Shown piece by piece: positions 35,519-63,837 of a DNA stretch of 64,000 bases; position 1 is the first letter of the stretch, and every line of letters starts with the position of its first letter. The position numbers and the translations under genes are program-made. This DNA is from an uncultured bacterium (lineage in GTDB: Bacteria; Muiribacteriota; Ozemobacteria; Ozemobacterales; Ozemobacteraceae), in NCBI GenBank assembly GCA_900317935.1, contig ONIU01000005.1:1726-65725 (forward strand). Direction: 5' to 3'. Below the pieces are notes generated by a model that ran no database searches, had not been told where the DNA came from, and worked only from the letters and a program-made list of their open reading frames with translations.

Positions 35519-35603
35519 TATAACCTCCAGATTTTTGTTTATTATACAATATTTGAGAGATATCGCAAGGTTTTTGTTTAATGTTTTAGATGTATGATAT
35601 AAG

Positions 35604-35837
35604 AGTTGGAAGTGTTGGAAGGGTTAGAAGTGTTGGAAGGGTTGGAAGTGTTGGAATGGTTAGATGTCTTAGAAGTGTTGGAAGTGTTGGAAGAGTTAGA
35701 AGAGTTGGAAGGGTTGGAAGTGTTGGAAGGGTTGGAAGAGTTGGAAGTGTTGGAAGGGTTGGAAGTGTTGGAAGGGTTAGAAGTGTTGGAATGGTTAGAA
35801 GTGTTGGAAGGGTTGGAAGGGTAGGAAGGGTTAGAAA
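35604..35837. repeat. 26-unit 9-bp tandem repeat (consensus NGTTGGAAG)
   Basis: Counted unit by unit from 35604. Variants are GTTAGAAG, GTTGGAAT and GTAGGAAG. Flanked by ATAAG on the left and GTAACGCTTTGCTGTG on the right, the same flanks that bracket the 4-5 unit tract inside M2 modules. Confidence 0.9.
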
Positions 35838-35865
35838 TGTAACGCTTTGCTGTGTCTTCTAAAGC

Positions 35866-35883
35866 CCCTCCTTGAGGAGGGGA
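35866..35883. repeat. GC-rich hairpin CCCCTCC-TTGA-GGAGGGG
   Basis: 7-bp perfect stem immediately after the 9-mer tract, 75 nt downstream of the stop of the helicase gene on the opposite strand. Confidence 0.6.
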
Positions 35884-35957
35884 ATAAAAGGGGTGGTGAC
35901 CTAACCATAGTAAACTATAGTTCTTTGAGTAGTTGTTGTAGTTGGTAGTTATTGTAA

Positions 35958-38516
35958 TTATTGTCTAAAAAAGTCCTGGGCACTTTTTAAAAGTAAGCGG
36001 AACTTTCCTTTTATAAAAGGTGATTCAGGAAGTGAATGAAGGAAATAACTGCCGTAAAACTTGTTGATAATTCTGTTATCAAGTATCCAGACAGTGCCTC
36101 TGTCTTTTTTTGAACGTATAAGCCTCCCAAAACCCTGTTTAAGCTTTATGGCCGCCATAGGAAGCTGATAGTCCTTAAATGGGTTACCACCATTTTCTTT
36201 TATTTTTTCGTTCCTTGCTTCAAGAACAGGGTCATTTGGTGAAGCAAAGGGCAGTTTAAGGATAATAAGATTTCTTAAAGATTCTCCAGGAATGTCTACG
36301 CCTTCCCAAAATGAATCTGTTCCAAATAACACTGCGTTTCCGTCTTCTTTGAATAATTCTACAAGATATTGTCTATCGAAGTCGCCCTGCTTATAACAGT
36401 TGATTCCTTGTGCTTCTAGTATAGGGCTAATATTATTATAGAACATATTTAAATGTGAATAAGAAGTGCACAGAACCAATGTACCGCCGAGAGATGATTT
36501 GATTATATCAATAATAGGTTGGGAAGCCTGTTCAATAAACAAGGCACTTGATGGGTCTGGTAAATCTGATGGTACAAACAATCTTGATTGTTCTTTATAA
36601 TCAAAAGGAGATTTATATCTTCCTTCGATTAGATTTGCTGAAATCTCTTCATTTGTTAAACCCAGTCTGGTTTTTAAAAAATTAAAGTTACCGCCAGTTG
36701 TCATTGTTCCAGACACCATTATTGTACATGGAATCTTATCGAAGCAATAATCTATCATCTGCTGAGAAATTGTAATCGGCAAAGAAGAATATGAAGTGTA
36801 TTTCCCCGTTTTGCGAACATTTGAAGTAAAGAAATGTACATAATCAGCTCTGTTTTCTGTTTCTAGCTCAAACATCATTTCAAGTCCGTTAGAAACTTCA
36901 TCTAGTCTGCTCGAATAATTATTTAATTCTGTGAAGGGAACTTCATAAATAGAATTATCTTCTTCAAAATCAGGCACAGAACTGTTTAAACGCCTTGCAA
37001 ATTTTTTCATTGAAGCAGATAAATGTTTTAATTCATCTTTCAGCTTTTTTGCTGTTGCACTTAAGATATTAAACTCATTTGAGGCTTCTTGCTTCGGGGT
37101 GACACGCAATCTGTATTCTCCAAGCTGAGTGCTGTCATTTAAAAGAAAACTTGTTATTGAATCGAATAGAACCTTGGAAATATCAGCTATTTCCATTCTT
37201 GAAGGAACAAGTATATCATTTATATCTTTTAAAAGAAGTTCTCTGTCTGAATCTTCTATATCGCCATGTTTAAAGGCTAGTGCGTTCGTTAACGTATAGA
37301 AGGTTCCGGATTCTTTTCTTCCCCGTTTTTGATAAATTTTGTTCATCAACCTTTGAAGTCCTGTAGCTGTAGTTCTGTAGCCAAAATGCTTAGTAGCTGT
37401 TTCTTCAAGATTATGAGCTTCATCCATTATAATTGCTTTGCAGGCTGGAATTACTGCTGTTTGAGAATATTCTGATGTTTCCGCTCTCAAAGCCAAATCG
37501 GAAAACAATAAAGAATGATTTACTACTAAAATATCGGCTTCAGCTGCTTTTCTTCGAGCATTATAAAAGAAGCATTCATTGTAATCCGGGCATTTTACTC
37601 CGGGGCAACTGTCTTTATCACAACAGACTTTATCCCATAAGCTTTCAGATGGAACCCAGGTTAAATCGCTCAAAGAACCGTCAGTCGTTTTTTCCATCCA
37701 GGCTGCTAATTTTTGAAATTGTGGAAATTCTAGTTCATCAAGAAGAAAGTCTGCATTATCACTTGCTGTAGCTTCTTTAACTCTTCTTAAGCAGATGTAA
37801 TTACTTCTACCTTTTAACAGACAATATTTGAAATCAAAAGGAATTATACTTTCAAGAAAAGGTAAATCTTTATCTATGAGCTGATATTGTAGATTTATGG
37901 TATTTGTAGAAACACAGACTCGGCATCTGTTCTTATGTGAGTAAAATATAGCTGGAATAAGATATGCCATACTTTTGCCTATACCCGTTTCACCCTCTAA
38001 TATTGCATGACAGGGACCATTTAAAGCATCTGTTATTTTTCCCATCAATTCTATCTGACCGTCACGTTGCTCATAATTTTTGAGCTTGGACGCAATTGGG
38101 CCTTCTTTCGAAATGTAGGCTATCATCTCTTTTTTGCTTAACTGCTCTGGTTGTTCTTCTATATAAGGTTCAACAACGACATAAAATTCAGAACAGTCAT
38201 TATTGTGGATTGCAAAACCTATTCCGGATTTCCCACAAATTGAAGCAACGCCCATATCGGCTTCTGAAGGTTTTAAGCGTCCTGATGGGTGATTGTGCAG
38301 AAGAACTTCTCCTGGTCTTAAGCTTTTAATAATCGCAGGAGCAGAATCTATTGTTCCTCTGGATATTACACGAACATCTGTATACTGGTCAGGTGCACAA
38401 CAGACTGCAGCTGAACATACTTCACAGCCGCCAGCCTGTTCTATTTCTTCTTTTAGATATTGTCTGTCATATTCATTTAATGTGACAGGTGAGGCTTTTT
38501 TCTTTCTACCAACCAT
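35958..38516 (-). CDS. dinG: DinG/Rad3-family Fe-S helicase with N-terminal RadC-like JAB/MPN metalloprotease domain
   Basis: 852 aa. JAMM motif HNHPSGRLKPSEAD in the first roughly 120 aa. Walker A GETGIGKS, DEAH box IMDEAHNLE, Cys cluster C..CCDKDSCPGVKCPDYNEC, motif V GTDSFWEGVDIPG and motif VI QGFGRLIRS. Confidence 0.8.
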   Translation of the reverse strand: MVGRKKKASPVTLNEYDRQYLKEEIEQAGGCEVCSAAVCCAPDQYTDVRVISRGTIDSAPAIIKSLRPGEVLLHNHPSGRLKPSEADMGVASICGKSGIGFAIHNNDCSEFYVVVEPYIEEQPEQLSKKEMIAYISKEGPIASKLKNYEQRDGQIELMGKITDALNGPCHAILEGETGIGKSMAYLIPAIFYSHKNRCRVCVSTNTINLQYQLIDKDLPFLESIIPFDFKYCLLKGRSNYICLRRVKEATASDNADFLLDELEFPQFQKLAAWMEKTTDGSLSDLTWVPSESLWDKVCCDKDSCPGVKCPDYNECFFYNARRKAAEADILVVNHSLLFSDLALRAETSEYSQTAVIPACKAIIMDEAHNLEETATKHFGYRTTATGLQRLMNKIYQKRGRKESGTFYTLTNALAFKHGDIEDSDRELLLKDINDILVPSRMEIADISKVLFDSITSFLLNDSTQLGEYRLRVTPKQEASNEFNILSATAKKLKDELKHLSASMKKFARRLNSSVPDFEEDNSIYEVPFTELNNYSSRLDEVSNGLEMMFELETENRADYVHFFTSNVRKTGKYTSYSSLPITISQQMIDYCFDKIPCTIMVSGTMTTGGNFNFLKTRLGLTNEEISANLIEGRYKSPFDYKEQSRLFVPSDLPDPSSALFIEQASQPIIDIIKSSLGGTLVLCTSYSHLNMFYNNISPILEAQGINCYKQGDFDRQYLVELFKEDGNAVLFGTDSFWEGVDIPGESLRNLIILKLPFASPNDPVLEARNEKIKENGGNPFKDYQLPMAAIKLKQGFGRLIRSKKDRGTVWILDNRIINKFYGSYFLHSLPESPFIKGKFRLLLKSAQDFFRQ

Positions 38517-39836
38517 TTAGGCTTTGTTTTCGTTTGTCTGTTCTTTTTTTTCAGGTGCTTTAAGAATTGAAAGTGTTTTGATCATTTCTTCATTCTTCAA
38601 TTCTTCTGCTAATTCAAAAATACTCTTATCTTCTTTGGTTTTGACTGTTATATCTGAACCGGCTGAAATAAGAAGTCTGACTGCTTCGAGGTTATTGCAT
38701 CTGATTGCAGCAAGTAGAGGCGTGTCAAAATTATCGTCACGTCTTTCTAATAAGACTCCATAACCTAATAAGGTAGCAAGAACGTCATACTGCTTTTCTA
38801 CAATAGCCATTTGAAGAGGTGTAAAACCGTATTTGTCGCGTGTTTCCGGGTCTGCGCCATTATCTATCAATATTTTGACTATTTCGTAATGACCCATTTT
38901 TGATGCTTCAAGAATAGGTGAATGACCAGAAATTGTTTCACATCTATGAACGTCAGAGCCTTTTTCCAAAAGCATTTTTACAGCGGGTATATTTCCTATT
39001 TGAGAAGCTGTAAGAAGGAGAGTCATGCCCATTTCGTCATTTTCATCCTTCAAAGACGGGTATTCATCGATTAGTTTTGCAAGTTCATCTATTTTGTTTT
39101 CTAATAATAAATCTTTTGCTTCGTTATATTTGCTTGAAATGGTCATTGATTGTGGAATTTTAGAAACTTCTTCAATATATTCAAGCAATCTGTCTTTGGG
39201 TAAATCTTCGTTCTTTTCATCTAAAAGCTTGGTAACTTCAGGAAGACTATTCATTAAAATAGCTGAAATTGTAAGACTTTTACTTTGTCTATAGTTAGAA
39301 AGTAGGCATTCAAGACCCTGAACATATAAAACAGGAATTTTATTGCTTTTTCCAACCCCAGTAAGAAATCTGGCAAAACTGAAGTTTAAACGAGGCTGTT
39401 TGAGTCTTTCAAAGTAGATACATGCATTTTGGGCTTTTTGAATTCTCATTACATGTTCTTTGTCATGGAATGATGTGGTCCAGGCTAGGTGACTTAACTT
39501 GTTGCAGAGCACTGCGTCACCTTTAGCACAGGCTATTTCTGCACAAACAGAAGTTAAAAAGCTTGTTTGAATATAGTCAAAAACAAAGGGGTGGGGTTCC
39601 TGACCTAAGAATTCATTAAGCGCATCGTCATCTCTATCTAGCTTTAAATAACATATAAAAGTGTAATATTTTTGCCACCCAAGCATAATTGGATCAACAG
39701 GCTTTTCAGCATACATCCTTTGTTTCATTTCAGCACAAAGAGCTAGTGCTTTTTCATAATTCTTATTGGTTATAAGATTCATTATTTCTTTTAGATATAC
39801 ATCGTAAAGTTGTTGTTTTTCCATTTTTGTCTCCAT
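38517..39836 (-). CDS. TPR-like helical / ankyrin-repeat protein
   Basis: ORF track starts at TTG 39887; the first ATG is at 39836, and ATG 39824 has GGAG 6 nt upstream. The C-terminal half has 4-5 ANK repeats (GMTLLLTASQIGNIPAVKMLLEKGSDV, GHSPILEASKMGHYEIVKILIDNGADP and others). Its stop abuts the helicase start (TAAATG). Confidence 0.8.
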   Translation of the reverse strand: METKMEKQQLYDVYLKEIMNLITNKNYEKALALCAEMKQRMYAEKPVDPIMLGWQKYYTFICYLKLDRDDDALNEFLGQEPHPFVFDYIQTSFLTSVCAEIACAKGDAVLCNKLSHLAWTTSFHDKEHVMRIQKAQNACIYFERLKQPRLNFSFARFLTGVGKSNKIPVLYVQGLECLLSNYRQSKSLTISAILMNSLPEVTKLLDEKNEDLPKDRLLEYIEEVSKIPQSMTISSKYNEAKDLLLENKIDELAKLIDEYPSLKDENDEMGMTLLLTASQIGNIPAVKMLLEKGSDVHRCETISGHSPILEASKMGHYEIVKILIDNGADPETRDKYGFTPLQMAIVEKQYDVLATLLGYGVLLERRDDNFDTPLLAAIRCNNLEAVRLLISAGSDITVKTKEDKSIFELAEELKNEEMIKTLSILKAPEKKEQTNENKA

Positions 39837-39960
39837 ATTTGGGTGCAATATATTTATTGAGCAGATATCATACCTTTTATTTCTCAATAAAACAATAGTC
39901 TAGGAAAATTTGTTTTGGATGTTTTTTGTAAAAGTTTCACTGTTTTGTTATTAAAATCCC

Positions 39961-40420
39961 GCTTAATCCCCATTTAAGAAAGGGGTAATTATAACAGCTG
40001 ACTGACGACCAACAGGATGTTGGGAGTGCAAGCGAGCGCCAGGATGTCAAGCGAGTCGTAGGGGGCATAAAGCTTCGCAGTGTTACGCTTCTCTGTGGGA
40101 CTCTTCGTTGTGGGACAGCAGCATAACGACTTGTGGGAATTGTTATAAGGGTGAGAAGGGTTGGAAGGGTTGGAAGGGTTAGAAGTGGAACGCTGCGGTG
40201 TGGTACACTTCGTTGTGGGACGTTTCACTGTGGTTATTGTCGAACAACTCCCACAGGCAGCGTTAGCTGCAGTCTCACAAGTTGTGTTAGCAACAGTCCC
40301 ACAGAGGCTTTAGCCTCGTTCCACCAACCACCAATATCTCCATCTTAGGTCTTGTGTCTCAAGTTCTGGTCTTATATCTCCATCTTTGGTCTTGTATCTC
40401 AATTTTAATGGCTCTTGATT
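39961..40420 (+). repeat. Composite intergenic repeat locus R4 (degenerate M1 + M2 + short tandem tracts)
   Basis: Direct repeat AGGATGT..CAAGCGAG x2 (40014-40056). M2 at 40069-40325, nearly identical to 41735-42006. Then a CCACCAACCACC / GGTCTTGT(A/G)TCTC tract to about 40410. Confidence 0.85.
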
Positions 40421-40467
40421 TTAACTTTACAAAATAATAGAATAACAATAATTAAGGAGAGCAAATC

Positions 40468-41514: not shown

Positions 41515-41540
41515 CCCACCACACTATGCTGGCTACGCCA

Positions 41541-41734
41541 GTAAGACCCCTTTCGGTTCCTGTGGAACCACTTTCCCAGCAATGCTATCGCATTCTGGGG
41601 GCAGATCGTTTTCTCAAAGAAGCGCCCCCAGTTTTGCAATTAGAGATGGCGACGTAGTGATCATCCATCCCGATGCTCCCCCAGAGTTTGAAAAACTGCT
41701 GGGGGAGCTGTCACGAAGTGACTGAGGGGGTCTT
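41541..41734 (+). repeat. Intergenic structured module M1, long copy
   Basis: Complementary AAGACCCC (41543-41550) and GGGGTCTT (41727-41734). Hairpins GGTTCC/GGAACC (41555-41569), AATGC/GCATT (41581-41594) and GTCAC/GTGAC (41710-41722). GAAGCGCCCCCAG core with a duplicated CCCCCAG. Confidence 0.85.
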
Positions 41735-42006
41735 AAAGCTTCGCAGTGTTACGCTTCGTTGTGGGACAGCAGCATAACTACTTGTGGGAATTGTTATAAG
41801 AGTGAGAAGGGTTGGAAGGGTTGGAAGGGTTAGAAGTGGAACGCTGCGCTGTGGGACACTTCGTTGTGGGACGGCTGTTTACAGCCTGTGGTAATAGTCA
41901 ACAACAAACACAGGCAGCGTTAGCTGCCGTCTCACAAGTTGTGTTAGCGACAGTCTCACAAGTTGCGTCAGCAACAGTCCCACAGAGGCTTTAGCCTCGT
42001 CCCACC
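41735..42006 (+). repeat. Intergenic palindromic module M2 (TGTGGGAC iterons / GTCYCACA + hairpins), full copy
   Basis: Left arm has YTGTGGGA(C/A) x5 around a 4-unit GGTTGGAAG tract. Right arm has GTCTCACA, GTCTCACA, GTCCCACA, each followed by a 5-6 bp stem hairpin (GGCAGC/GCTGCC, GTTGC/GCAAC, GAGGC/GCCTC). Confidence 0.9.
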
Positions 42007-42012
42007 TACTTC

Positions 42013-44107: not shown

Positions 44108-44171
44108 TTTTTTACCTTTAAAAATTTAGTAGTTATTTTATTAAGCCGTTTATTCGTAATTGTCAAGATTT

Positions 44172-44556
44172 CTAAAAGAAGAAGCGCCCAAAGCGAGACT
44201 GAGATGGCTTTAAAGTAGTGGAATGCTTTGCTGTGATACACTTCGTTGTGTGACAGCAGCATAACTGCTTGTGGGAATTGTTATAAGAGTTAGAAGGGTT
44301 GGAAGGGTTTAAAAGAATGAAGTGTAACGCTGCGCTGTGGGACACTTCGTTGTGGGACGGCTGTTTACAGCCTGTGGTAATAGTCAACAACAAACACAGG
44401 CAGCGTTAGCTGCCGTCTCTCAATTTGCGTCAGCAACAGTCCCACAGAGGCTTTAGCCTCGTCTCACCATCTGACAACCGAGGGCAGATCGTTTTTCCCC
44501 GAAGCGCCCCCAGTTTAGCAATTTGAGCTGTCAGCTTGCTGACTGAGGGGGTCTTC
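44172..44556 (+). repeat. Composite intergenic repeat locus R6 (degenerate M1 - M2 - short M1)
   Basis: GAAGAAGCGCCC at 44178. M2 at 44212-44468. Short M1 at 44480-44555 with a GTCAG/CTGAC hairpin (44530-44543) and a GAGGGGGTCTT end. Lies in the divergent promoter region between the MATE gene and the first channel gene. Confidence 0.85.
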
Positions 44557-44646
44557 TCTTTATCCAAATAAATAACTTAAATTTCTGAGCAAAATAATAT
44601 ACAATACTGACAAATTTATAATTCATACTCATAAAAGGAAATTGCT

Positions 44647-46389
44647 ATGAAAAATATCAAGTCAAACTTAGTTTTAATCATTATTTTCGTTGAAATTTTC
44701 CTCGTTATGGGTATTACCTTTATCGTTAAAACTCTAAATTATGAAGATTATACCGAGAAAAAATTTATAGATAAAACTACTCAGGTTTTGAAAGAAACGG
44801 CTTCAGGTAAAGATGTTGATGCAATTATAGAAGAGGGTGGGGCTAAATTTAATAAACTTCTTACAACTCTTGATATTGCTCAAAACAGTTTTGCTTTTGC
44901 TATAGACTCAAATCTTAAAATTAAGATGTATAACAAAACTAAGGAAGAATTCAGCAAAGCTCTTGATATTTCCATGTTTCCTCAATTAAAGGAAGTAAAC
45001 ACATTAGCTTTTTATGTTTCTAAACGCCAATCAAGTAATTTTGAGTATTTTTCCGAATCTAGCAAAGAAAAACTAATATACTTTGTAGAGCCTGTTCCGA
45101 ACTCTAAGTGGGTATTGGTTGTCAGTGTCTTAAAAGACAGCATTGTCATGAAAACGGTTACAGAAAAAAGATACTTTTTTTGTGGTATAGCATGCTGTAT
45201 TTTTGCTTTAACAATGACTGCCGCTTTCTTCGGTTGGGTTCTTCCTAAGGATATAAAAAATAAATTCTGGTATTCAGCTTCTTTTATTTCTTTAGGTCTT
45301 TCTGTTGGAATTAGTATTTTATGCGTTTTCAGCAATAAGTATCATGATTACGAAAACCCAGAAGAAATTTCTTTGACTGACCAGAACATAATTGATGGCT
45401 TTCTAGATAAGTTTGATAATCAACTTGTTGAAGAAGGAAACAGCAGAATAAACAGAGTCAGAGTAGGGGTTTTCTTAAAAAATCTTGATTTTGAATCCAG
45501 CACAAAGGTTAATTTTTCCGGTTATTTGTGGCAAAAATTAGATAAAGACCAGTTGGGAAAGATAAAAGAAGGCTTTTATTTTGCTGACTCCTTTAAAAGC
45601 AAGTTTCATAAACTTCATGAAAAAGAAAATTCTGATGGAAGCAAGATATTTGTCTGGTATTTTACTTGTCTTGTGAGCTGTGATTTGGCTGAGAACAAAC
45701 TTTATCCATTTGATGTAGAATCAGTAAGTTTAAGACTGAGTTCTTCTGATTTTGGGAATAATGTAATACTTGTTCCTGATATTAGAGATTATGTTGATAT
45801 TGAGCCTTATTCGAAACCAGGAATCTATAATAACCTTACTATACCAGGCTGGAATGTTTCTGAAAGTTATTTCACTTATTTAAAGGAAAACTATAACTCT
45901 ACTTTTGGGGTTTTTCAGTCTCATACTGGCGGGTCACTTAATAACGAACTTTATTTTAAAGTAATTCTCAGAAGGTCTTTCTTAGGTTCTTTCATAAGTA
46001 TATTCCTGCCAATATTCGTTACAATGGTCATGATGTTTATTCTTCTATTAACTTGTTCCAGCGATGAAGAAAGATCAAAGAAACTTGGTTTCTCTGCAGG
46101 GGCTATATTAGCCAGCACTGCCGCGTTATTCTTTGTTGTTATCGTTGCTCAGATTGACTTAAGAGACAAGGTTGCTGCTAATGGGCTTATATATATGGAT
46201 ATTTACTATTTCGTAACCTATTTGATGTTTATGATAGTTAGCATTGATTCAATTCTGCTTTGCTGGCCTGATAAATTCAAATGGATAATCTGGGAAGACA
46301 ATATTATTGTTAAAAGCCTGTTCTGGCCAGTTGCTACTTCTATTATTTTCCTGTCTACCTTGGTTTATTATTTCCCAAGCGGTATATGA
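44647..46389 (+). CDS. Pentameric ligand-gated ion channel (pLGIC/Cys-loop superfamily) homolog with N-terminal TM-sensor-TM module, paralog 1
   Basis: 580 aa. The C-terminal roughly 350 aa show VRVGVFLKNLDFESSTKVNFSGYLWQKL (beta1-2), LYPFDVESVSLRL (Cys-loop-equivalent YPFD), ILRRSFLGSFISIFLPIFV (M1), ERSKKLGFSAGAILASTAALFFVV (M2), YMDIYYFVTY (M3) and a C-terminal M4. The N-terminal roughly 230 aa are TM, a roughly 150-aa extracytoplasmic domain, then two TM helices. Confidence 0.75.
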   Translation: MKNIKSNLVLIIIFVEIFLVMGITFIVKTLNYEDYTEKKFIDKTTQVLKETASGKDVDAIIEEGGAKFNKLLTTLDIAQNSFAFAIDSNLKIKMYNKTKEEFSKALDISMFPQLKEVNTLAFYVSKRQSSNFEYFSESSKEKLIYFVEPVPNSKWVLVVSVLKDSIVMKTVTEKRYFFCGIACCIFALTMTAAFFGWVLPKDIKNKFWYSASFISLGLSVGISILCVFSNKYHDYENPEEISLTDQNIIDGFLDKFDNQLVEEGNSRINRVRVGVFLKNLDFESSTKVNFSGYLWQKLDKDQLGKIKEGFYFADSFKSKFHKLHEKENSDGSKIFVWYFTCLVSCDLAENKLYPFDVESVSLRLSSSDFGNNVILVPDIRDYVDIEPYSKPGIYNNLTIPGWNVSESYFTYLKENYNSTFGVFQSHTGGSLNNELYFKVILRRSFLGSFISIFLPIFVTMVMMFILLLTCSSDEERSKKLGFSAGAILASTAALFFVVIVAQIDLRDKVAANGLIYMDIYYFVTYLMFMIVSIDSILLCWPDKFKWIIWEDNIIVKSLFWPVATSIIFLSTLVYYFPSGI

Positions 46390-46489
46390 CAATAATGAAT
46401 TAACTTGAAAAATACCTTATCTGGTTTATATTTGAGTAATAGTTTGTATATGGCTTATGTCAAAAGCAATAAATGAAAAGAAATAAATT

Positions 46490-48229
46490 ATGAAAAATAT
46501 TAAAACCAGTATTGCTATACCAATTATTTTTATCTGGTTGTTTCTTGTTCTTGGAATAACCCTGATAGTAAAAACTGTTAATTATGAAAGTTATACAGAA
46601 TTAAAGTTTATAGATAAAACTACTAAAACTTTACAGAAAACTGTTTCTGAAAAAGGCTTAAATGAAATCATCGACGAAGGCGGAGCTAAATTCAATAAGC
46701 TTTTGACAAAGCTTGATATAGCGCAGAACTCTTTTGCATTAGCTATTGATTCTGATAAAAAGATTAAAATCTATAATAAAACCAAGGCAGAAGTCAGTGA
46801 ATCCCTGGATATTTCAATATTCCCTCATTTAAAAGATAACAAAGAACTAATTGATCTGGTAACTAAACATCAATCCGGGCACTTTGAATTCATTTCAAAT
46901 ACAAGCAAGGAAAAATTATATTGTTTTGTAGAAGCTGTTCCGAGCTCTAAATGGTGCTTAGTAGTTACTGTTTTAAAAGATAGTATTGTTATGAAGACAA
47001 TTAAGGAAAAACGATACTATTTTTCTGGTATAGCCTGCTGCATTATATCTTTTACTATGTTGATTACATTGCTGGGTTGGCTTTTCCCTAAAAATATAAA
47101 AAATAAATTCTGGTATTCTTCCTCATTGTTTTCTATAGTTCTTGCTTTGGGAATAAGCATGCTTTGTGTTTTCAGCAACAAATTTAATGACTATGAAAGC
47201 CCTCAGGAAATCTCTTTAACAGACCAGAACATTATCGAAGGTTTCCTTGATAAATATGACAATCAGTTGGCTGAAGAAGGTAATGGACAAATAAATAGAG
47301 TTAAAGTAGGTATTTTCCTTAAGAATATTGATTTCGAATCAAGCACAAAGGTAAATTATAGCGGTTATCTTTGGGAAAAGCTTACCAAAGAACAGGTTGG
47401 AAACATAGAACCTGGTTTATATTTTTCTGATTCATTTAAAAGTAAATTTCAGCAGTTATATGAAAAGGATAATCCTGACGGCAGCAAAGTCTACGTCTGG
47501 TATTTTGAGTGCCGTCTAAGCGCTGACTTGCAGGAGAAAAAGCTTTATCCTTTTGATGTAGAAGCAGTAAAAGTCAGACTTCGCTCAAGGGATTTCGGAA
47601 ACAATGTTATTCTTGTGCCTGATACCAAGGATTATGTTGATGTAGAACCTCATGCAAAACCTGGAATATATAACCAGATGACAATTCCAGGCTGGAATAT
47701 TTCTGAAAGCTTTTTTACTTATTTAAAAGAACAATATGATTCAACTTTTGGTGTGTTCCACTCTCATACAGGAAGTATAGTTTATACTGAACTCTATTTT
47801 AACGTTATATTGAGACGTTCATTTTTAGGTTCATTTATTAGTATATTCCTGCCTATATTCGTAACTTTAGTCATGATTTTTATTCTGCTTCTCACCTGTT
47901 CCAATGATGAGGAAAGGTCGAAGCATCTTGGTTTCTCTGCAGGAGCTATATTAGCCAGCACAGCTGCATTATTCTTCGTTGTAATCGTAGCTCAGATTGA
48001 TTTAAGAGATAAAGTGGCGGCCGATGGCCTGATTTACATGGATATTTATTATTTTGTAACTTACTTTGAATTTATGCTTGTCAGCATTAACTCTATTTTG
48101 ATGTGCTGGCCAGATAAGTTTAAATGGGTTGCCTGGGAAGACAATATCTTGGTAAAAAGCACTTTCTGGCCAATAGTTACATCTATAATATTTATAGCTA
48201 CGCTATTTTATTACTTCCCAAGAATCTAG
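46490..48229 (+). CDS. pLGIC homolog with N-terminal TM-sensor-TM module, paralog 2
   Basis: 579 aa, colinear with 44647..46389 over the full length. The pore region is nearly identical and the N-terminal sensor region is more diverged. Confidence 0.75.
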   Translation: MKNIKTSIAIPIIFIWLFLVLGITLIVKTVNYESYTELKFIDKTTKTLQKTVSEKGLNEIIDEGGAKFNKLLTKLDIAQNSFALAIDSDKKIKIYNKTKAEVSESLDISIFPHLKDNKELIDLVTKHQSGHFEFISNTSKEKLYCFVEAVPSSKWCLVVTVLKDSIVMKTIKEKRYYFSGIACCIISFTMLITLLGWLFPKNIKNKFWYSSSLFSIVLALGISMLCVFSNKFNDYESPQEISLTDQNIIEGFLDKYDNQLAEEGNGQINRVKVGIFLKNIDFESSTKVNYSGYLWEKLTKEQVGNIEPGLYFSDSFKSKFQQLYEKDNPDGSKVYVWYFECRLSADLQEKKLYPFDVEAVKVRLRSRDFGNNVILVPDTKDYVDVEPHAKPGIYNQMTIPGWNISESFFTYLKEQYDSTFGVFHSHTGSIVYTELYFNVILRRSFLGSFISIFLPIFVTLVMIFILLLTCSNDEERSKHLGFSAGAILASTAALFFVVIVAQIDLRDKVAADGLIYMDIYYFVTYFEFMLVSINSILMCWPDKFKWVAWEDNILVKSTFWPIVTSIIFIATLFYYFPRI

Positions 48230-48377
48230 CATTATTCTTCCCGATCTACCAATTGTTTAGCTAGGGTAGTTGTTATACTACGGATAGCAAGCCTGCCGTT
48301 CAATATATTGTGAATGGACGCCAAGCGAAGATTTGCGTTTAGCTAATTAGAATCAACACAATTAGACGTAAAACTAA

Positions 48378-48410
48378 AAGCGCCCCTTATTAGAGGCGCT
48401 TTAATCTTTA
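48378..48410. terminator. Possible bidirectional terminator
   Basis: AAGCGCC-10 nt-GGCGCTT stem between convergent genes. The T-tract is interrupted (TTAATCTTTA). Confidence 0.4.
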
Positions 48411-48428
48411 TGCTTATAACTCTAAAGG

Positions 48429-49217
48429 TTATTTCTTTTCGAAAATGCTGCAGTTATACTTACTAGATTTATATAATCTATTGTAGCTCTTGGGTGTATT
48501 TTTATACATTCCATTGCATTCAATAATTTTTTTATTTCTATATTTCAAAGCAAGATAAACTGATTTTAATACATCTGATTTAGCTTCTTTGTACCCTTTA
48601 TTAATATTCTTTTGTGAATAATAGTTTGAGTCACCTTTATGTTTCGGGTCCCAACCCTGCATTTTCTTTATAGTAGTTTTCTGGTTAAGCATAGCACTTG
48701 CCCAGCCGTAGTGAAGATATGGGTCTTTGAAATAACCTTCTCTTTGTGTTGTTCCAATTAATATTATTACATAATCTTTTGATACGCCGATAGATGCAGC
48801 GAGTTCTATAATTTCTTCTCTTGTCGGCGTTTTCATACTTTTCAATTCTTTATTAAAGTCTTCAGGAGAAATACCTTTATTTACTGATTTTACGGTTTCT
48901 TTAGTCTTTTTACTGTCTGAATCTGTAATTGTAGAATCTGCAGTCTTAGCTTCTTTATTGTCATCTAGTTTCTTGGGAGTTTCAGGCTTTGTATCTGTTG
49001 GATTTTTTGTGACAACATCATTTTTTATATCTTTTTCTGTTGTAAGATATTCACCTTCCCAAATTGGAGTTGTATCTAATTCATTATTAGCTACATCTTT
49101 TTTTATTTTAATTTCATTGTCTTCGAAAGGATTATCAGCATAAAGGTTTTGACCGAATAGTGCTGAAATACTTAAGGCCAGAATCAAACTCTTTTTAATC
49201 ATATTAATTCTCTCCAT
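48429..49217 (-). CDS. Secreted protein, possible cell-wall hydrolase-like C-terminal domain
   Basis: 262 aa with a signal peptide and a T/K/D-rich linker. The C-terminal region (IGTTQREGYF..WASAMLNQ) faintly resembles SleB/CwlJ-type Hydrolase_2, but this functional guess is weak. Confidence 0.5.
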   Translation of the reverse strand: MERINMIKKSLILALSISALFGQNLYADNPFEDNEIKIKKDVANNELDTTPIWEGEYLTTEKDIKNDVVTKNPTDTKPETPKKLDDNKEAKTADSTITDSDSKKTKETVKSVNKGISPEDFNKELKSMKTPTREEIIELAASIGVSKDYVIILIGTTQREGYFKDPYLHYGWASAMLNQKTTIKKMQGWDPKHKGDSNYYSQKNINKGYKEAKSDVLKSVYLALKYRNKKIIECNGMYKNTPKSYNRLYKSSKYNCSIFEKK

Positions 49218-49409
49218 AAAAAACTATATGTTAATATATATATACATTATAAATGAAAAAAAGTTTATATTTGTTTTCTGTTTTTTGAACTGCATTGTAT
49301 TGTTTACAAAGCCTTATTTATGTGTAATAATAAATGCGCTGCATAGCGCAATAAAACATACTTAACATAAAAGATAAAATCAAAATTTATGACTTTTCTT
49401 TAATATTAT

Positions 49410-50747
49410 ATGAATAGAAAAAATTTGATTAAAGCTGAACCAGAACTAATAAAGTTTTTCAAATCTCTTTGGCCCTTTGAAATACAAACAGAAAAAGAAA
49501 GCTTAAATATTGAAATAGGCCAAAATAAAAGAGAGATTTGGGCTTTTCCTCTATCTGGCGGAAGTGAATATATAGATGATGCAATTCATGCAATGGAAGA
49601 ACATCGCAAAGTTATTCCGGCTGCCTTGAACCGCTGTATTGATAAAATTGATGGCGCTTTCCTGGTTGGTTATTATGCAAAAAAAGTCAAAGAAGATGAA
49701 TATGAACATGGGTTGGTTATTATACCAGCAAATAGAGGTTCTAAGGAATTAAATTCCAGACTTTTAACTGATTTTTGTTTTGAGCGAAACTCTCTCTATG
49801 AGAATATGCTATCTGAAGAATATTTTTCTCAGATTAACTGTTTTTTAAATGCTTATAAGTCAGTTTGTAAAAAATATTGGATTCAGGATACAAAACTTAT
49901 TAATACCTCTTTTGTTAAGAGGCCAGAAATCATTGACGATGAGCTTTTCCCGGAACAGGCGGCTATTTCTACATGGCATACAGAAGTTTACCCAGATTTT
50001 ATGCGACCTGTGAGCATGATAGGTGATATTTATATTGATTTTATGATTTGTGATCATAAGCTTATTTGCCTGATGAACGAAATAGAAGATGATGATACAA
50101 TCTGGAATTTTTTTGAGGAAGAATGTATAAAAAAGATTTATACTTTGCCAGCTTCTATCTCGAACAATTCAGCAAATATAAATTTAAAAGGCTGGTGTGA
50201 AACTACATCATTTGAATTATCAGAAAGAAAAGATTTAAATTATAAAACTATCTATGATATTGCTGTTCCAGGATTAAAAGGGGCTCTTATTGATCAAGGT
50301 TATTCTATTGGCTGGTGTGGGAAGATAGCTTTTATTTGTATTGGAATTGATAAACCTTTGTACGTTTCTCCTGAATTAGTTGTACAACTCTCTGATATAT
50401 TTGATTTTGAGCAGGCAGGCAACGATAATAAAGCTTTTTGGAGAAATAGAGATATTGAATATAGAAGAAGATTTGGAAATCATAATCTGGTTAAAGTTTG
50501 CGACGACCTCATGACTGAAGAAATCGCTAAAGAAAAGCTTTTTGAAGCTTGTAAAAAAGTTTTGCAAAGTTGCAAAAATCCTTTAAAACCAATTCAAAAG
50601 GGAATAACAAAATATGTTCTACGCTATTTAAAAGGATTAGCTCGTGGGTCATATGAAAAACAAGCTTCTGAACTTATTGTTAAAATCAATTCTGACCAGA
50701 TTTGTGCTGACTTACAAGAAACCATCTATTCTATCTTGAATCTTTAA
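49410..50747 (+). CDS. Hypothetical cytoplasmic protein
   Basis: 445-aa ORF with no TM helix, no signal peptide and no recognised motif. Confidence 0.6.
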   Translation: MNRKNLIKAEPELIKFFKSLWPFEIQTEKESLNIEIGQNKREIWAFPLSGGSEYIDDAIHAMEEHRKVIPAALNRCIDKIDGAFLVGYYAKKVKEDEYEHGLVIIPANRGSKELNSRLLTDFCFERNSLYENMLSEEYFSQINCFLNAYKSVCKKYWIQDTKLINTSFVKRPEIIDDELFPEQAAISTWHTEVYPDFMRPVSMIGDIYIDFMICDHKLICLMNEIEDDDTIWNFFEEECIKKIYTLPASISNNSANINLKGWCETTSFELSERKDLNYKTIYDIAVPGLKGALIDQGYSIGWCGKIAFICIGIDKPLYVSPELVVQLSDIFDFEQAGNDNKAFWRNRDIEYRRRFGNHNLVKVCDDLMTEEIAKEKLFEACKKVLQSCKNPLKPIQKGITKYVLRYLKGLARGSYEKQASELIVKINSDQICADLQETIYSILNL

Positions 50748-51110
50748 TCTTCTAACTTGAAACTCGTAACTTGTAACTAAGTGTTACGCTTCGCTGTGGG
50801 ACACTTCGTTGTGAGACAGCTGTTTACAGCCTGTGGAAATAGACAACAATAAACACGGACAGCTTTAGCTGCCGTCTCACAGATTGCTCGCAATCGTCTC
50901 ACAGAGGCTTTAGCCTCGTTCCACTGTCTAAATATCGAGGTCAGAACTTTTTACTCGAAGAAGCGCCCCTAAAATGCCTTCGGCATTGCTGGGGGAGCTG
51001 TCACGTAGTGACTGAGGGGGTCTTTAAGATAATTCTAAATTCTCACTCACTACCTATCACCCACCACTAAACTTGTAACTTGTAACTTAAAACTTAAAAC
51101 TTATATCTAA
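50748..51110 (+). repeat. Composite intergenic repeat locus R7 (heptamer tract - short M2 - short M1 - tracts)
   Basis: CTTGTAAC-type tract at 50748-50780. M2 without the 9-mer tract at 50781-50924. M1 at 50937-51024 with AATGCC/GGCATT (50973-50987) and GTCAC/GTGAC (51000-51012). CACC and AACTTGT/AACTTAA tracts extend to about 51110. Confidence 0.85.
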
Positions 51111-51211
51111 AAAAATATTAATTTATGGTTATAAAATTTTAGACATTAACCGAAAACAAAGTACACACCGTAGTTAATAAATATATAAGGGTACAGGGTG
51201 GAGTTTGGTTA

Positions 51212-51739
51212 ATGAATAATTTTTTTCACGGTTTAAAGGATTGGTTTGGCGACTTCGTTAAAGCACTAATTTTCTTTTTGTTGCTTCAGACTTATGTTGC
51301 ACAAGGTTTCGTAATTGAAGGTTCATGTATGGAACCCGAACTGCATTCACACGAGAAAATAATGGTTAATAAGATGATTTATCGTGTGAAAGAACCAGAG
51401 GTTGGGGAAATTGTAGTTTTCAGATATCCATATGAGCCTGGCAAAGATTTTGTAAAGCGTGTAGTTGGCGTTCCTGGAGATGTAATAGCTATAAAAGACG
51501 GCTATTTATACAGAAATGGCAAAAAAATGAATGAATCATTCGTCAAGGAATACGTTTTCGGAACCTATGGTCCTTTGAAAGTTCCCGATGGCAAATTATG
51601 CGTTATGGGAGATAATAGAAATAATTCTCATGACAGCAGAGCCTGGGGTTTACTTGATAGAAATATGGTAAAAGGTAGAGCCGACATTCGTTTTTGGCCC
51701 GTTAAGCAAATAGGTTTAATTCCCGTAAGAAAAGACTGA
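51212..51739 (+). CDS. lepB: Signal peptidase I
   Basis: 175 aa. GSCMEPEL (Ser box), KRVVGVPGD (Lys box) and GDNRNNSHDSR (box E). GGTGGAG RBS. Confidence 0.9.
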   Translation: MNNFFHGLKDWFGDFVKALIFFLLLQTYVAQGFVIEGSCMEPELHSHEKIMVNKMIYRVKEPEVGEIVVFRYPYEPGKDFVKRVVGVPGDVIAIKDGYLYRNGKKMNESFVKEYVFGTYGPLKVPDGKLCVMGDNRNNSHDSRAWGLLDRNMVKGRADIRFWPVKQIGLIPVRKD

Positions 51740-51746
51740 TTAGTAA

Positions 51747-51893
51747 GATATAAGATTTAAGATATAAGATATAAGAAATAAGATATAAGATTTAAGATAT
51801 AAGATATAAGAAATAAGATATAAGATTTAAGATATAAGATATAAGATGTAAGAAATAAGTTTGAAGAAGATAGATAAGCTTTAAGCTATAAGC
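51747..51893. repeat. Heptamer tandem array (GATATAA family), 35-bp higher-order period
   Basis: 16 clean units at 51747-51858 in the pattern [GATATAA GATTTAA GATATAA GATATAA GAAATAA] x3.2, then 5 degenerate units to 51893. Starts 8 nt after the lepB stop. Confidence 0.9.
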
Positions 51894-52011
51894 CAAAAAA
51901 TCGTTTTTATTTGATTGGTTTTGAGCATAAAGCTTTTTTCTATCTGATTAAAAAATTAAACACTTGTAATTAAGCTTAGGTAATAGTATTATATCAAGCT
52001 TGGAGTTAAAC

Positions 52012-52665
52012 GTGACTACTAATTATAAAACTGAATCATTTACCTGTCCATGCTGTGGTAAAGAATTTGAAAGCAAAATCGTGACCATGATTACTCATGA
52101 AGGTCAGGATTCCGATTTCTTGCCACATTTTGTTGGGGCTAATCCTTTACCTTTTTATTTAGCAAAATGTTCATATTGTAATTATGTAGGATATCCAGAA
52201 GATTATTCTGTAGAAAATTCTCATAAGTATTCTATTAACCCATCACAAATTAAGAAAATTCTTAGTATGCCTCTTGCTAAGAAAATACCAAACGAAGCAA
52301 TAGATTTTTTTGTTGCTGGTAAAATCTATGAAGAGCAGAAAAAGAATCCTTATTTTACAGGAAATCTATATTTGCGTGGTGCTTGGTGCTGTAGATTAAT
52401 AGAGAATCGGAAAGCAGAAATAGAACTTCAACAGCTTGCAATCAGGTTTTTTAAATTGGCTCTTGATAAATCAACAATTTCAAATCCTGATACTGTTTCT
52501 GTTGTAACATATCTTGTAGGTGAATTATATAGAAGGTTGGAAGACCGTAAATCAGCAAGAGAATGGTTTGAAGCAACCGTTGAAACTATTATTGATCCTG
52601 AACAGCAATGGCTTTTGGAATTAACTCAAAAACAAGCTGAATTAAATGAATATTTAATTAATTAA
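52012..52665 (+). CDS. DUF2225-like protein (N-terminal zinc ribbon, helical C-terminus)
   Basis: ORF track starts at TTG 52000; GTG 52012 lies 6 nt after GGAG. Motifs CPCCGKEF...CSYCNY. The family name is from memory. Confidence 0.55.
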   Translation: MTTNYKTESFTCPCCGKEFESKIVTMITHEGQDSDFLPHFVGANPLPFYLAKCSYCNYVGYPEDYSVENSHKYSINPSQIKKILSMPLAKKIPNEAIDFFVAGKIYEEQKKNPYFTGNLYLRGAWCCRLIENRKAEIELQQLAIRFFKLALDKSTISNPDTVSVVTYLVGELYRRLEDRKSAREWFEATVETIIDPEQQWLLELTQKQAELNEYLIN

Positions 52666-52681
52666 TTTAAGGAGTTTCTTT

Positions 52682-53110
52682 ATGAACAAAAAGGCTGAAA
52701 AATTTGAAAAAATGCTGAAAGATAACAAAATTGAATGCTTTCAGAAAGAAGAAGTAAAAGACGAACTGAATTCTGTTCTTTTCAGAAGTTTCATGGAAAT
52801 TGAAGGACTTCAACTTCCTGTTGTTGTAATTCTTGATGATAGTATTTATAGTATTTTCAGAACACTAGTTATTGGAAAAGGTGTTAATGAAAAGAACAAA
52901 AATGATGTTGTTAATGTAGTAAATACTTTAAATTCTACTTATAAATCTTTCAAATATATTGTTTCTGAAAATGGTGAAATTATTCTTGATGTTTGTGTTC
53001 CATGCACTGATGATAATTTTGATCCAAATTTAATCAGAGTTATGATTGATGTTGCCATTAAGAATCTTAATGAAAACTATCGCAAAATTGTTAAAACTGT
53101 TTGGGAATGA
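52682..53110 (+). CDS. Hypothetical protein (possibly YbjN-like fold)
   Basis: 142 aa with AAGGAG RBS, 16 nt after the upstream gene. The fold guess is weak. Confidence 0.5.
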   Translation: MNKKAEKFEKMLKDNKIECFQKEEVKDELNSVLFRSFMEIEGLQLPVVVILDDSIYSIFRTLVIGKGVNEKNKNDVVNVVNTLNSTYKSFKYIVSENGEIILDVCVPCTDDNFDPNLIRVMIDVAIKNLNENYRKIVKTVWE

Positions 53111-53141
53111 TCTTAAAGCTCTAGATTATAAATCCTAAAAA

Positions 53142-53195
53142 TATAAGTCGCAAACCAGGTAACTTATTTATCTGTTTTGCGACTTATACTTTTTT
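53142..53195 (+). terminator. Rho-independent terminator
   Basis: TATAAGTCGCAAA ... TTTGCGACTTATA 13-bp stem followed by CTTTTTT. Confidence 0.75.
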
Positions 53196-53765
53196 AGATT
53201 AAGTTACAAGACACAAGTTATAAGATTCAAGTTACAGATTAAAATCTTATGTCTCCATCTATGGACTTGTATCTCAATTTTTGGTCTTAAATATTACAAC
53301 AACTAACACGGGCAGCTTTACCTGCCGTCTCACAGATTGCGTTTGCAATCGTCCCACAGAGGCCTTAGCCTCGTATCACCTTCATCTTATAATCTTGTAT
53401 CTTGTAACTTATGACTTGTAACTTATAACTTATAACTAAAGGTCTCTCGTCAGCTGTCCTTAAAATTCACAACTACCACTACTCACTTATATCACTAATC
53501 ACTAATCACTTATCACTTATCACTAATCTTATATCTTCTATCTTATATCTTGTAACTTGTAACTTGTAACTTGTAACTAAGTGTTACGCTTCGCTGTGGG
53601 ACACTTCGTTGTGGGACGTTTCACTGTGGTAATAGTCAACAACTAACACGGGCAGCTTTAGTTGCCGTCTCACAGATTGCGTCAGCAATCGTCCAACAGA
53701 GGCTTTAGCCTCGTATCACCTACCACCAACCACTCACCACTTACCACTTACCACTTACCACCTAC
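53196..53765 (+). repeat. Composite intergenic repeat locus R9 (tracts - M2 right half - about 200 bp heptamer tracts - short M2 - CCACTTA tract)
   Basis: M2 right half at 53293-53380. Heptamer tracts at 53381-53580 (CTTGTAA, CTTATAA, ATCACTA/ATCACTT, CTTATAT). Short M2 at 53581-53720. (CCACTTA)n tract at 53721-53765. Confidence 0.85.
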
Positions 53766-53786
53766 TAGTCATTTGTTAACTAAAAG

Positions 53787-63836: not shown

Positions 63837-63837
63837 G

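Follow-up and report, generated by a model that had tools for sequence, protein, structure and literature searches.

The DNA analyzed here is a 64,000-nucleotide (nt) window from an uncultured bacterium, corresponding to positions 1726-65725 of contig C227 in a source assembly of 4.55 Mb, 371 contigs, and 34.7% GC. Our subject is a stretch of this window (positions 35519-53786) in which long noncoding gaps between genes are occupied by hairpin-forming repeat modules, chiefly two that we call M1 and M2, and by short-period tandem tracts. The stretch contains ordinary genes that have no relation to each other. They code for a JAB-DinG helicase, an ankyrin protein, an S-adenosylmethionine (SAM) methyltransferase, an RNase T–like exonuclease, a MatE transporter, two paralogues of ~580 amino acids (aa), two hypothetical proteins, a signal peptidase, a DUF2225 protein, a YbjN-like protein, and an amidohydrolase. 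For the RlmE protein, the closest named relatives come from Candidatus Riflebacteria/Rifleibacteriota metagenome-assembled genomes (MAGs), with 78-80% identity. Contigs coding for identical proteins are present in several metagenome assemblies, including the STEW18 and STEW19 sets, which we take to be from cattle rumen.

The six gaps announced by the original prediction are all present: 35519-35957 (g1), 39888-40467 (g2), 41515-42012 (g3), 44108-44646 (g4), 50748-51211 (g5), and 53111-53786 (g6). As predicted, repeats are found at junctions of every type (divergent in g2 and g4, convergent in g3 and g6, tandem in g5), and the modules are GC-richer (47-55%) than the window (33%) and its repeat-free gaps (20-24%). 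The further claim that the gaps consist almost wholly of M1, M2, and tracts holds for g2 to g6, which are 60-89% dispersed repeat, but not for g1, which lacks a full M1 or M2. As determined by BLAST, sequence with at least fivefold coverage elsewhere in the genome makes up 74% of g2, 89% of g3, 64% of g4, 60% of g5, and 75% of g6. Every large gap of the stretch had been described as filled in this way. This is the case inside the stretch but not in the rest of the window, whose largest gap (4057-4783; 727 bp, 24% GC) contains none of the repeat families and has no other copy in the genome.

To describe M2, we used alignments of 46 near-full copies and a cleaner set of 25 copies (A1). M2 is a composite palindrome of ~145 nt with a five-part consensus. 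Its left arm reads AAGTGnnACGCTkCGCT-GTGGGAC-ACTTCGTT-GTGGGAC and is followed by a central hairpin, TGTGGTAATTGTC-gAA-CAACTACCAC. Three small hairpins, each with a tag behind it, make up the rest: GGCAGC-GTCA-GCTGCC with the tag GTCTCAC-A, the middle hairpin GATTGC-NNNN-GCAATC with the tag GTCCCAC-A, and GAGGC-TTTA-GCCTC with the tag GTnTCAC. In the RNAalifold structure, the two GTGGGAC iterons of the left arm pair with the two internal GTCYCAC tags of the right arm, and the three small hairpins fold separately. In this fold, 97.4% of cells are paired and five pairs show compensatory double changes, for example, GC to AU at columns 88:95 in 6 of the 25 copies and AU to GC at columns 109:122 in 5 of the 25. 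The score exceeded those of all 500 shuffles and all slid controls, fold z-scores ranged from -3.6 to -5.7, and the loops of the middle hairpin vary freely. Copies are ~80% identical to each other, so there was no very recent burst.

Hairpins form on both strands of M2. The consensus contains three G·U wobbles (G·T in DNA) and no A·C, and the written strand of the g4 M2 region is predicted to fold better (-63.3 kcal/mol, z -5.4) than its complement (-55.8 kcal/mol, z -3.0). The wobble pattern and the better predicted fold point to a single-stranded form of one strand, which may be RNA or single-stranded DNA (ssDNA). The GTCCCAC heptamer occurs 311 times in the genome, with 69 occurrences inside open reading frames (ORFs); the reversed control heptamer occurs 219 times, 209 of them inside ORFs. 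At the gathering threshold, no Rfam family matches the window. A structured noncoding RNA gene was considered and rejected: besides the lack of an Rfam hit, orientations relative to genes are balanced (35 versus 35) and congeners have 0-3 copies.

M2 is modular in itself. Architectures were counted by a strict pattern check, since loose regular expressions had a high false-positive rate on a reversed-genome control. The variants comprise a duplicated middle unit in g3 (period 24), copies without the middle unit or without the first, others that end after the middle unit, solo terminal hairpins inside tracts, and a subfamily with an inverted 9-mer tract in place of the center; copies with 0, 1, or 2 of the units labeled Hb, or without Hc, occur. 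Upstream of the core, a left extension consists of TGTGGGAC iterons plus AGCAGCATAAC..GTGGGAATTGTTATAAG, as read from the g2 copy.

Tandem tracts usually flank M2: (GGAAGKGTT)n or (AACTTGT)n on the left and, on the right, (NNACCAC)n, (TCTCAAT)n, or an M1. More generally, both M1 and M2 sit within polar tracts of short period, with G-rich 9-mers or heptamers on the 5′ side and C-rich heptamers on the 3′ side. Base composition is mirrored across M2 (29% G and 11% C on the left, 33% C and 10% G on the right). Of 38 left flanks, 13 showed strict 7- or 9-nt periodicity, as did 6 of 39 right flanks, compared to 2.5% of random intergenic 45-mers. The 9-mer GGAAGKGTT is identical to the first nine bases of M2, and the C-rich heptamers continue its terminal tag. 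Since the tracts repeat the terminal words of M2, they may be slippage outgrowths of the element ends or, alternatively, landing pads for the element. The original prediction had described M1, M2, and tracts combined in varying order; it had missed that the tracts continue M2's own terminal words, that there are optional hairpin cassettes (including a 56-nt one nested in M1), and that g1 lacks a full module. Genome-wide, noncoding arrays number ~190 with a period of 7, 14, or 21 nt and ~93 with a period of 9, 18, or 27 nt. A 20-nt unit, GGTCTTRTATCTCMATYTNT, adjoins M2 in two gaps (40330-40406 and 53245-53281) and in congener G004 (L019 1680-1720); it adds a further conserved word to the vocabulary of the mosaic. 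The 9-mer tracts, the heptamer tracts, and M2 itself yield ORFs of 90-128 aa, for example, ones coding for (VGR)n peptides, at 35590-35862 of the window and in 17 other places. Gap g1 therefore escapes a genome-wide ORF heuristic, its own 9-mer tract yielding the spurious 90-aa ORF at 35590-35862.

M1 is a 130- to 190-nt scaffold, AAGACCCCTTTCG-[hairpin]-CACTTCCCCC-[hairpin]-GGGGGCAGATC...GAAGAWGCGCCCCCAG-[hairpin]-CTGGGGGAGCTG-[hairpin]-CTGAGGGGGTCTT, with inverted 8-nt ends (AAGACCCC ... GGGGTCTT). The full-length g3 copy carries four G5/C5 runs and variable internal hairpins. From copy to copy, the hairpins differ by compensatory changes. The genome contains ~70 left and 68 right M1 ends. 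Around the 14 strictly paired full M1 copies, no target-site duplication, consistent direct repeat, or conserved flanking word was found. The orientation of M1 agreed with the local GC skew at 11 of 11 loci with |skew| >0.06 and at 12 of 16 with a cutoff of 0.03; in this small sample, a replication-strand preference is possible. The 56-nt cassette M5 has ~20 genomic copies, most of them located between CTGA and GGGGTCTT of M1, and what had been read as a degenerate M1 in g2 is an M1 carrying M5. A hairpin module, CCCCTCC-TTGA-GGAGGGG, follows M1 3′ ends in contigs C205 and C176 and is also present in g1.

The modules are arranged differently in each gap; all features of the gaps are on the + strand, including every M2 copy within the stretch. 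Gap g1 contains 26.7 copies of the 9-mer GGAAGKGTT (35601..35840, detected by Tandem Repeats Finder [TRF] and seen in the sequence; depth up to ~295 genome-wide). This tract runs into a remnant at 35833..35905 (depth ~15-29) composed of the 22-nt truncated 5′ end of M2, AGAAATGTAACGCTTTGCTGTG, then TCTT-CTAAAG, and then the dispersed CCCCTCC-TTGA-GGAGGGG hairpin; a 39-nt part of this module has a 97% match at the end of C74, a contig with a DDE transposase. In g2, the M5 cassette (CGACCAACAGGATGTTGG...GTCGTAG; 40006..40061) lies between CTGA and GGGG(C)ATAAAG of the degenerate M1 3′ end. It is followed by the M2 left extension and a 9-mer tract (40069..40185; families D3 and D8, nhmmer left-extension model, TRF), the M2 core (40180..40325; nhmmer 1.7e-42; covariance model R1, 161.8 bits; fold -59.5 kcal/mol, z -4.7), and C-rich heptamers leading into 20-nt repeats, GGTCTTRTATCTCMA.. 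(40330..40406; family D11, TRF, locus L019), the unit of which also occurs in g6 and in congener G004.

In g3, a full-length M1, AAGACCCCTTTCG ... CTGAGGGGGTCTT (41541..41734; fold -61.3 kcal/mol, z -5.4), directly precedes an M2 at 41735..42005, which comprises the left extension, a 9-mer tract, and a core with a duplicated 24-nt tag-and-hairpin unit (TRF period 24; -73.7 kcal/mol, z -5.7; nhmmer and covariance model). Gap g4 has, at 44178..44468, an M1 3′ remnant, an M2 left extension, a 9-mer remnant, and an M2 core (44318-44468; fold, nhmmer, and covariance model), and then a short-form M1, GAAGCGCCCCCAG ... CTGAGGGGGTCTTC, at 44480..44555 (fold and nhmmer). In g5, an AACTTGW heptamer tract leads into an M2 core at 50775-50925 (together 50726..50925; families D7 and D12, fold, nhmmer, and covariance model), and an M1 at 50937-51024 is followed by C-rich and AACTTRW heptamer tracts (together 50937..51113; TRF and nhmmer). 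The last gap, g6, begins with 14- and 20-nt tracts and the right half of an M2, i.e., the center-right arm with three hairpin units at 53284-53380 (together 53201..53380; TRF and fold). It continues at 53386..53765 with CTTATAA, CACTAAT, and CTTGTAA heptamer tracts, a full M2 core (53575-53720), and a CACTTAC heptamer tract (TRF, nhmmer, and covariance model).

A genome-wide census had been proposed as the way to distinguish a dispersed family from a feature of this one region, and it established dispersal. With nhmmer, the M2 core model gave 177 matches on 90 contigs, the left-extension model 84 matches on 49 contigs, and the M1 model 62 matches on 43 contigs; covariance model R1 detected 93 M2 copies. 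Most M2 hits (156 of 177) are located outside ORFs, and the 17 "coding" overlaps all involve spurious 91-128 aa ORFs to which the repeats themselves give rise. All real copies are intergenic, with a GC content of ~50%. Among gaps of at least 400 bp genome-wide, ~20% contain M1 or M2 and 56-59% contain some repeat of at least five copies. The numbers of M2 at tandem, divergent, and convergent junctions were 55, 26, and 25 (expected ~61, 29, and 16). There was no bias of M2 relative to gene direction, with 35 copies at tandem junctions oriented with the genes and 35 against them. M2 orientation was also unrelated to GC skew: a weak initial signal (53 of 87) was discarded when it disappeared upon merging hits into independent loci, 28 of 52 of which agree. 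The stretch itself contains five merged M2 loci against 0.58 expected (Poisson P ~3e-4 per window, with ~250 windows) and ties with one other place, on contig C205, for the densest M2 cluster of the genome.

Relatives were then compared. A 20-nt motif of M2, with 66 occurrences in this genome, was absent from 40 relatives, including six congeners, and among 185,579 species representatives it had a single match, in an unrelated Cypionkella MAG. The covariance model detected 93 M2 copies here versus 0-3 in each of the six congeners, and outside the genus neither BLAST nor the covariance model found any. The congener copies follow the same grammar, i.e., heptamer tract, M2, C-rich heptamers, and 20-nt unit. 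In congeners G006 and G002, the synteny of the DinG, ankyrin, methyltransferase, and RNase T genes is kept. Their ankyrin-methyltransferase gap is 122-123 bp compared to 580 bp here, and their methyltransferase–RNase T gap is 40 or 137 bp compared to 498 bp here. In a third congener, G005 (L025, C57:9505-13502), the methyltransferase gene is directly followed by an inverted YbjN-DUF2225 pair and then by an AMP-ligase gene; the end points of the rearrangement therefore correspond to gaps g3 and g6 of this genome.

For comparison at the strain level, we used contigs from other samples with flanking genes 91-100% identical to those of the window. As can be seen from the orthologous gaps, strains with 91-99% identity differ by whole M2 units, by hairpin cassettes, and by tract length. 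The original prediction had proposed to look for presence/absence polymorphism, which was found, and for target-site duplications, which were not found at M1. Gaps g2 and g5 are stable in several strains, and the gaps are assembled identically, with 99-100% identity, in independent rumen metagenomes. The length of g6 varies (308, 358, 463, 477, 492, and 676 bp). Its M2 right half (53284-53380) is present in all strains compared, and its second M2 (53575-53720) only in the window and in strain contig L047, being absent from five other strain contigs. Strain L040 carries a single hybrid M2 in g6, consistent with recombination between the two direct copies, and the g6 heptamer tracts differ between strains in steps of ±7 or 14 nt. 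At another locus, an M2 with a C-rich tract present in L095, L075, and L062 is absent at C248:38513-38631 of this genome.

Smaller units are exchanged as well. In strain L010, two hairpins of the g3 M1 are replaced within otherwise identical flanks, GGTTCC-TGT-GGAACC standing for GGCAC-TAC-GTGCC, together with the next hairpin. The g3 M1 of L099 carries an M5 inserted precisely at CTGA|GGGGG, where the window has none, and the adjacent M2 has different cassettes. No clean empty-site junction was found for M2 in either comparison: congeners are too diverged, and strains show replacement of tracts rather than simple insertion, because the flanks of M2 are themselves variable tracts.

Two strain contigs lose collinearity at the repeats. 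The homology of L040 starts at 51125, just past the g5 repeats, with different genes upstream, and L071 leaves synteny inside the g4 M2, although a chimeric assembly at the repeat is possible for L071. The region between these points (44647-50747) is a block of four genes, two hypotheticals and the two ~580-aa paralogues (families D5 and D6, with 69-76% identity at the DNA level). M2-M1 composites in direct orientation bracket it, one in g4 and one in g5. Since the L071 and L040 contigs leave synteny exactly at g4 and g5, this block may be a strain-variable island.

In agreement with the original prediction, which saw no transposase, RAYT, or integrase gene in the window, six Pfam families covering transposases, integrases, and reverse transcriptases (RTs) had no match on the window's contig. 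Elsewhere, the genome encodes one Y1 transposase, one RT, four DDE_Tnp_1, three rve, and seven integrase-family genes; TnpB was not found in the genome. The search for a Y1 transposase that the prediction had recommended thus recovered a gene, but one whose flanking hairpins differ from M1 and M2. This gene (C156:18440-18892) is single-copy and codes for a 150-aa protein with visible HUH and Y motifs (PF01797, 88.6 bits; NF033573, 71 bits). On both sides, it is flanked by dispersed CCTAGGGCG..CGCCCTAGG (CCTAGGG hairpins) and GTGCC..GGCAC hairpins, which occur at ~24 loci on 17 contigs; a left half of M1 lies ~360 nt downstream of the gene. Gene and hairpins form an arrangement like that of the REP-associated tyrosine transposases (RAYTs) of repetitive extragenic palindromic (REP) systems, but the hairpins are unrelated to the M2 units. 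Of the 41 genomes of the family, 28 have a single-copy Y1 gene, congeners with no M2 among them, and across genomes the presence of Y1 does not correlate with that of M2. When the flanks of the Y1, RT, and four DDE_Tnp_1 loci were compared (rve and integrase loci lay outside this comparison), no ends shared with M1 or M2 were found, and the sole similarity was the 39-nt module at the end of C74, which is neither M1 nor M2.

Three observations on these loci stand apart from the repeat family. The Y1 unit on C156 is bracketed by an 87-nt direct repeat (17941-18027 and 19427-19513; 93% identical). At C170:28027-29949, a 449-aa RT is preceded by two 118-nt direct repeats (28027-28144 and 28767-28884; 89% identical), which from their sequence look like the template/variable pair of a diversity-generating retroelement. 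An integrase-family gene is located on the same contig at C170:32956-33438.

The original prediction likened the gaps to bacterial interspersed mosaic elements (BIMEs) and REPs, or to swarms of REP doublets forming hairpins (REPINs) or of miniature transposable elements with inverted repeats (MITEs). The likeness stands insofar as the repeats are dispersed, intergenic, hairpin-forming, mosaic, lineage-specific, and strain-polymorphic, but the defining features of REP and MITE are lacking. REPs are imperfect palindromes of 20-40 nt with an unpaired GTAG or CGTC head; in the CGTC type, the stem measures 8-9 bp and begins with AT, the loop has 4-5 nt, and there is a CCA tail (PMC3733652). The units found here have a GTCYCAC(A) head, a 5- to 6-bp stem, and a 4-nt loop. 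A RAYT would be a Y1 flanked by the same repeat family, and the flanks of Y1 are not M2 units. A REPIN is an inverted doublet, and in M2 three hairpins stand in direct order on one arm, the other arm having iterons without hairpins. The ends of the modules match no resident element compared, and the lack of target-site duplication at 14 full M1 copies argues against a classical DDE-type MITE.

By functional analogy, two descriptions do apply: a BIME-like mosaic, with M1, M2, the left extension, M5, and 7-, 9-, and 20-nt tracts in differing orders, and a BOX-like modular element, in which outer iterons and tags pair and inner self-folding hairpins vary in number. With BIME/REP and REPIN-RAYT systems (PMC3116915; PMC3733652), the family shares imperfect palindromes that are short and GC-rich and have a conserved unpaired word beside the stem, intergenic mosaics with other motifs, high copy number, species-specific families, compensatory stem changes, and, in the case of REPIN-RAYT, a single-copy Y1 transposase with hairpin flanks in the genome. 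It differs from BIME/REP in its 7- to 8-nt GTCYCAC(A) tag, in the fixed order of units inside a larger palindrome, in its flanks of 7- or 9-nt tandem tracts, and in not being depleted from divergent junctions. The boxA-boxBn-boxC element of Streptococcus pneumoniae likewise has outer modules that pair, an inner self-folding module of variable copy number, strain-polymorphic length, clustering and nesting with other repeat families, and an uncertain mobilizing enzyme (PMC3049150). In contrast to BOX, whose sequences are unrelated and belong to another phylum, the inner units here are 24-nt tag-and-hairpin units of three types rather than a 45-nt boxB, the elements are GC-rich in an AT-rich genome, and expansion of the terminal words has given long tandem tracts.

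A further parallel is with the short tandemly repeated repetitive (STRR) heptamers of cyanobacteria and the 21- to 27-nt small dispersed repeats (SDRs) of Nostoc, which Elhai et al. are said to have described in 2008. Reportedly, these too form abundant noncoding tandem arrays, with tiny hairpins sitting between heptamer-like words or nested in repeats, and SDRs are said to lack both target-site duplications and a known enzyme. The family described here belongs to another phylum and uses other words, and most of its small hairpins are in fixed order within M2. Heptamer simple sequence repeats are found in Xanthomonas and Nostoc (PMC4692102). BrickBuilt, a MITE of Porphyromonas gingivalis, is also an intergenic, species-restricted composite; its components are leader and tail modules bearing small inverted ends, plus 23-nt units arrayed in tandem inside the element (PMC4596501). 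BrickBuilt has 19 copies and its array is internal and spacer-less, whereas here the tracts are terminal and the internal units are tag-separated hairpins. Our literature search found no description of interspersed repeats in Riflebacteria, and the family is a new, lineage-specific addition to the known class of bacterial interspersed mosaic repeats.

Overall, we consider it fairly likely that the gaps are filled by lineage-specific, noncoding, nonautonomous modular repeat DNA that spread and was then remodeled in place. Rather than a new gene or a local duplication, the repeats probably represent selfish or mobile DNA of the REP/BIME/BOX type. In the scenario we favor, a hairpin-dependent process acting in trans and creating no target-site duplication would have spread the scaffolds to ~100 intergenic sites in the species. 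Once inserted, the scaffolds would be reshaped by replication slippage of the terminal 7- and 9-nt words and of the 24-nt tag-and-hairpin units, by recombination between copies, and by short-patch gene conversion swapping hairpin cassettes. The net effect would be inflated, GC-rich, recombination-prone intergenic regions that differ from strain to strain, any effect on transcription being secondary. These three processes can be seen directly when strains are compared. A selfish repeat explains the data better than a dedicated RNA or host site because the distribution is dispersed and intergenic, the expansion is at least 30-fold, the congener gaps are short, copies are gained, lost, and swapped between strains, and there is no orientation bias. 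The compensatory upkeep of stems fits a hairpin-dependent propagation step, and the lack of target-site duplication together with the one-strand wobble pattern leans toward an HUH-type or other single-strand mechanism. By analogy with proposals made for REP/BIME, the repeats may also have a secondary influence, in cis, on transcription or on DNA topology.

Several points weigh against this explanation. The search for a mobilizing enzyme yielded no transposase end, among those compared, that matches M1 or M2; the single Y1 has another hairpin family and is also present in congeners without M2. With no clean M2 junction, presence/absence differences could reflect deletion or conversion and not insertion, and chimerism at repeats could affect some strain contigs. 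The copy numbers given for this genome and for congeners are underestimates, because the MAG is fragmented (371 contigs) and 36 of the 177 M2 hits lie at most 500 bp from contig ends. Last, compensatory upkeep of stems would also fit selection for a cellular function. If that function were served in cis, as proposed for REP/BIME, the elements would be bidirectional terminators, mRNA 3′-end protectors, insulators, or binding arrays for nucleoid proteins or gyrase. Stems that are kept despite ~20% divergence between copies, the iteron-like GTGGGAC words, and a mild enrichment at convergent junctions (25 observed versus ~16 expected) would all suit such roles, and the absence of orientation bias is compatible with them since hairpins form on both strands. 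We nevertheless regard host-selected elements as unlikely: congeners with the same genes in the same synteny have gaps of 40-137 bp, strains of the same species lack individual copies, copy number differs at least 30-fold between sister species, divergent gaps that contain promoters are not depleted (26 versus 29 expected), no U-tract was seen after any hairpin, and there is no Rfam match.

A true REP/REPIN-RAYT system, in which Y1 would act on the tag-and-hairpin units or the scaffolds and move them as ssDNA without target-site duplication, appears doubtful as well. In its favor are a single-copy Y1 with dispersed hairpins on both sides and an M1 left half ~360 nt downstream, M1 copies free of target-site duplications, M5 precisely present or absent 3′ of YGA, three G·T wobbles that favor the top-strand fold (-63.3 versus -55.8 kcal/mol), and the agreement of M1 orientation with strong GC skew at 11 of 11 loci. 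However, the hairpins beside Y1 (CCTAGGGCG..CGCCCTAGG and GTGCC..GGCAC) are unrelated to M2 units, there is no GTAG tag, the CGTC found at unit junctions adjoins 5- to 6-bp rather than 8- to 9-bp stems that do not start with AT, M2 orientation does not follow GC skew (28 of 52 loci), and the 28 of 41 family genomes with Y1 include congeners with no M2. The mobile units could also be the smallest parts, i.e., the 17- to 24-nt M2 tag-and-hairpin cassettes and the 56-nt M5, inserting precisely, on one strand, and without target duplication. They would land beside GTCYCAC, at a heptamer boundary, or at YGA|GGGG in M1, with scaffolds and tracts serving as landing pads and with a possibly HUH-type or template-directed machinery as the agent. 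The precise presence or absence of M5 in g3, the hairpin swaps within identical flanks, and the solo hairpins in tracts speak for this, but gene conversion among the dispersed copies accounts for these data no less well, and we regard mobility of the small parts as unlikely. If true, it would amount to behavior like that reported for cyanobacterial SDRs in a second, unrelated phylum, with natural strain polymorphisms to exploit. In contrast, local segmental duplication or an assembly artifact confined to the region can be practically dismissed. The stretch does tie for the densest M2 cluster, with copies sharing one orientation; however, the census refuted this explanation, as 90 contigs harbor copies and the contexts are unrelated. 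Moreover, independent metagenomes yield identical assemblies of these gaps, and the genes separating the gaps are not related except for one duplicated pair, the pentameric ligand-gated ion channel (pLGIC) genes of families D5 and D6.

Two array-like readings were also rejected. An integron attC array does not agree with the mixed gene orientations, with housekeeping genes that are syntenic in repeat-free congeners, with cores of GTGGGAC/GTCCCAC instead of RYYYAAC/GTTRRRY, or with the lack of a Phage_integrase-family match on C227. A CRISPR-like array was rejected, too.

The family has practical consequences for work on such genomes. The repeats break short-read assemblies, as the 36 of 177 hits at contig ends indicate, and gene callers may annotate the spurious 90-130 aa ORFs to which they give rise as hypothetical proteins. 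They mark hot spots of strain-level rearrangement, insertion, and deletion and offer strain-typing markers for rumen metagenomics. They also provide another case in which heptamer and 9-mer tracts and tiny hairpin cassettes form one system.

Other parts of the window contain related features. Within the stretch, a 260-bp gap that was not on the original list has a TAAGATA heptamer tract of 16.6 units on the + strand (51744..51867, TRF); in other strains, this tract has 10-16 units. Outside the stretch, a further M1 copy is located on the + strand at 7726..7861 (paired M1 ends at C227:9451, 136 nt apart), in a gap (7643-7956) that is 45% repeat. At the end of the window, an inverted M2 with an inverted 9-mer tract occupies 63833..63996 on the − strand (covariance model R1, C227:65558-65673, minus strand; TRF, 63944-63996).

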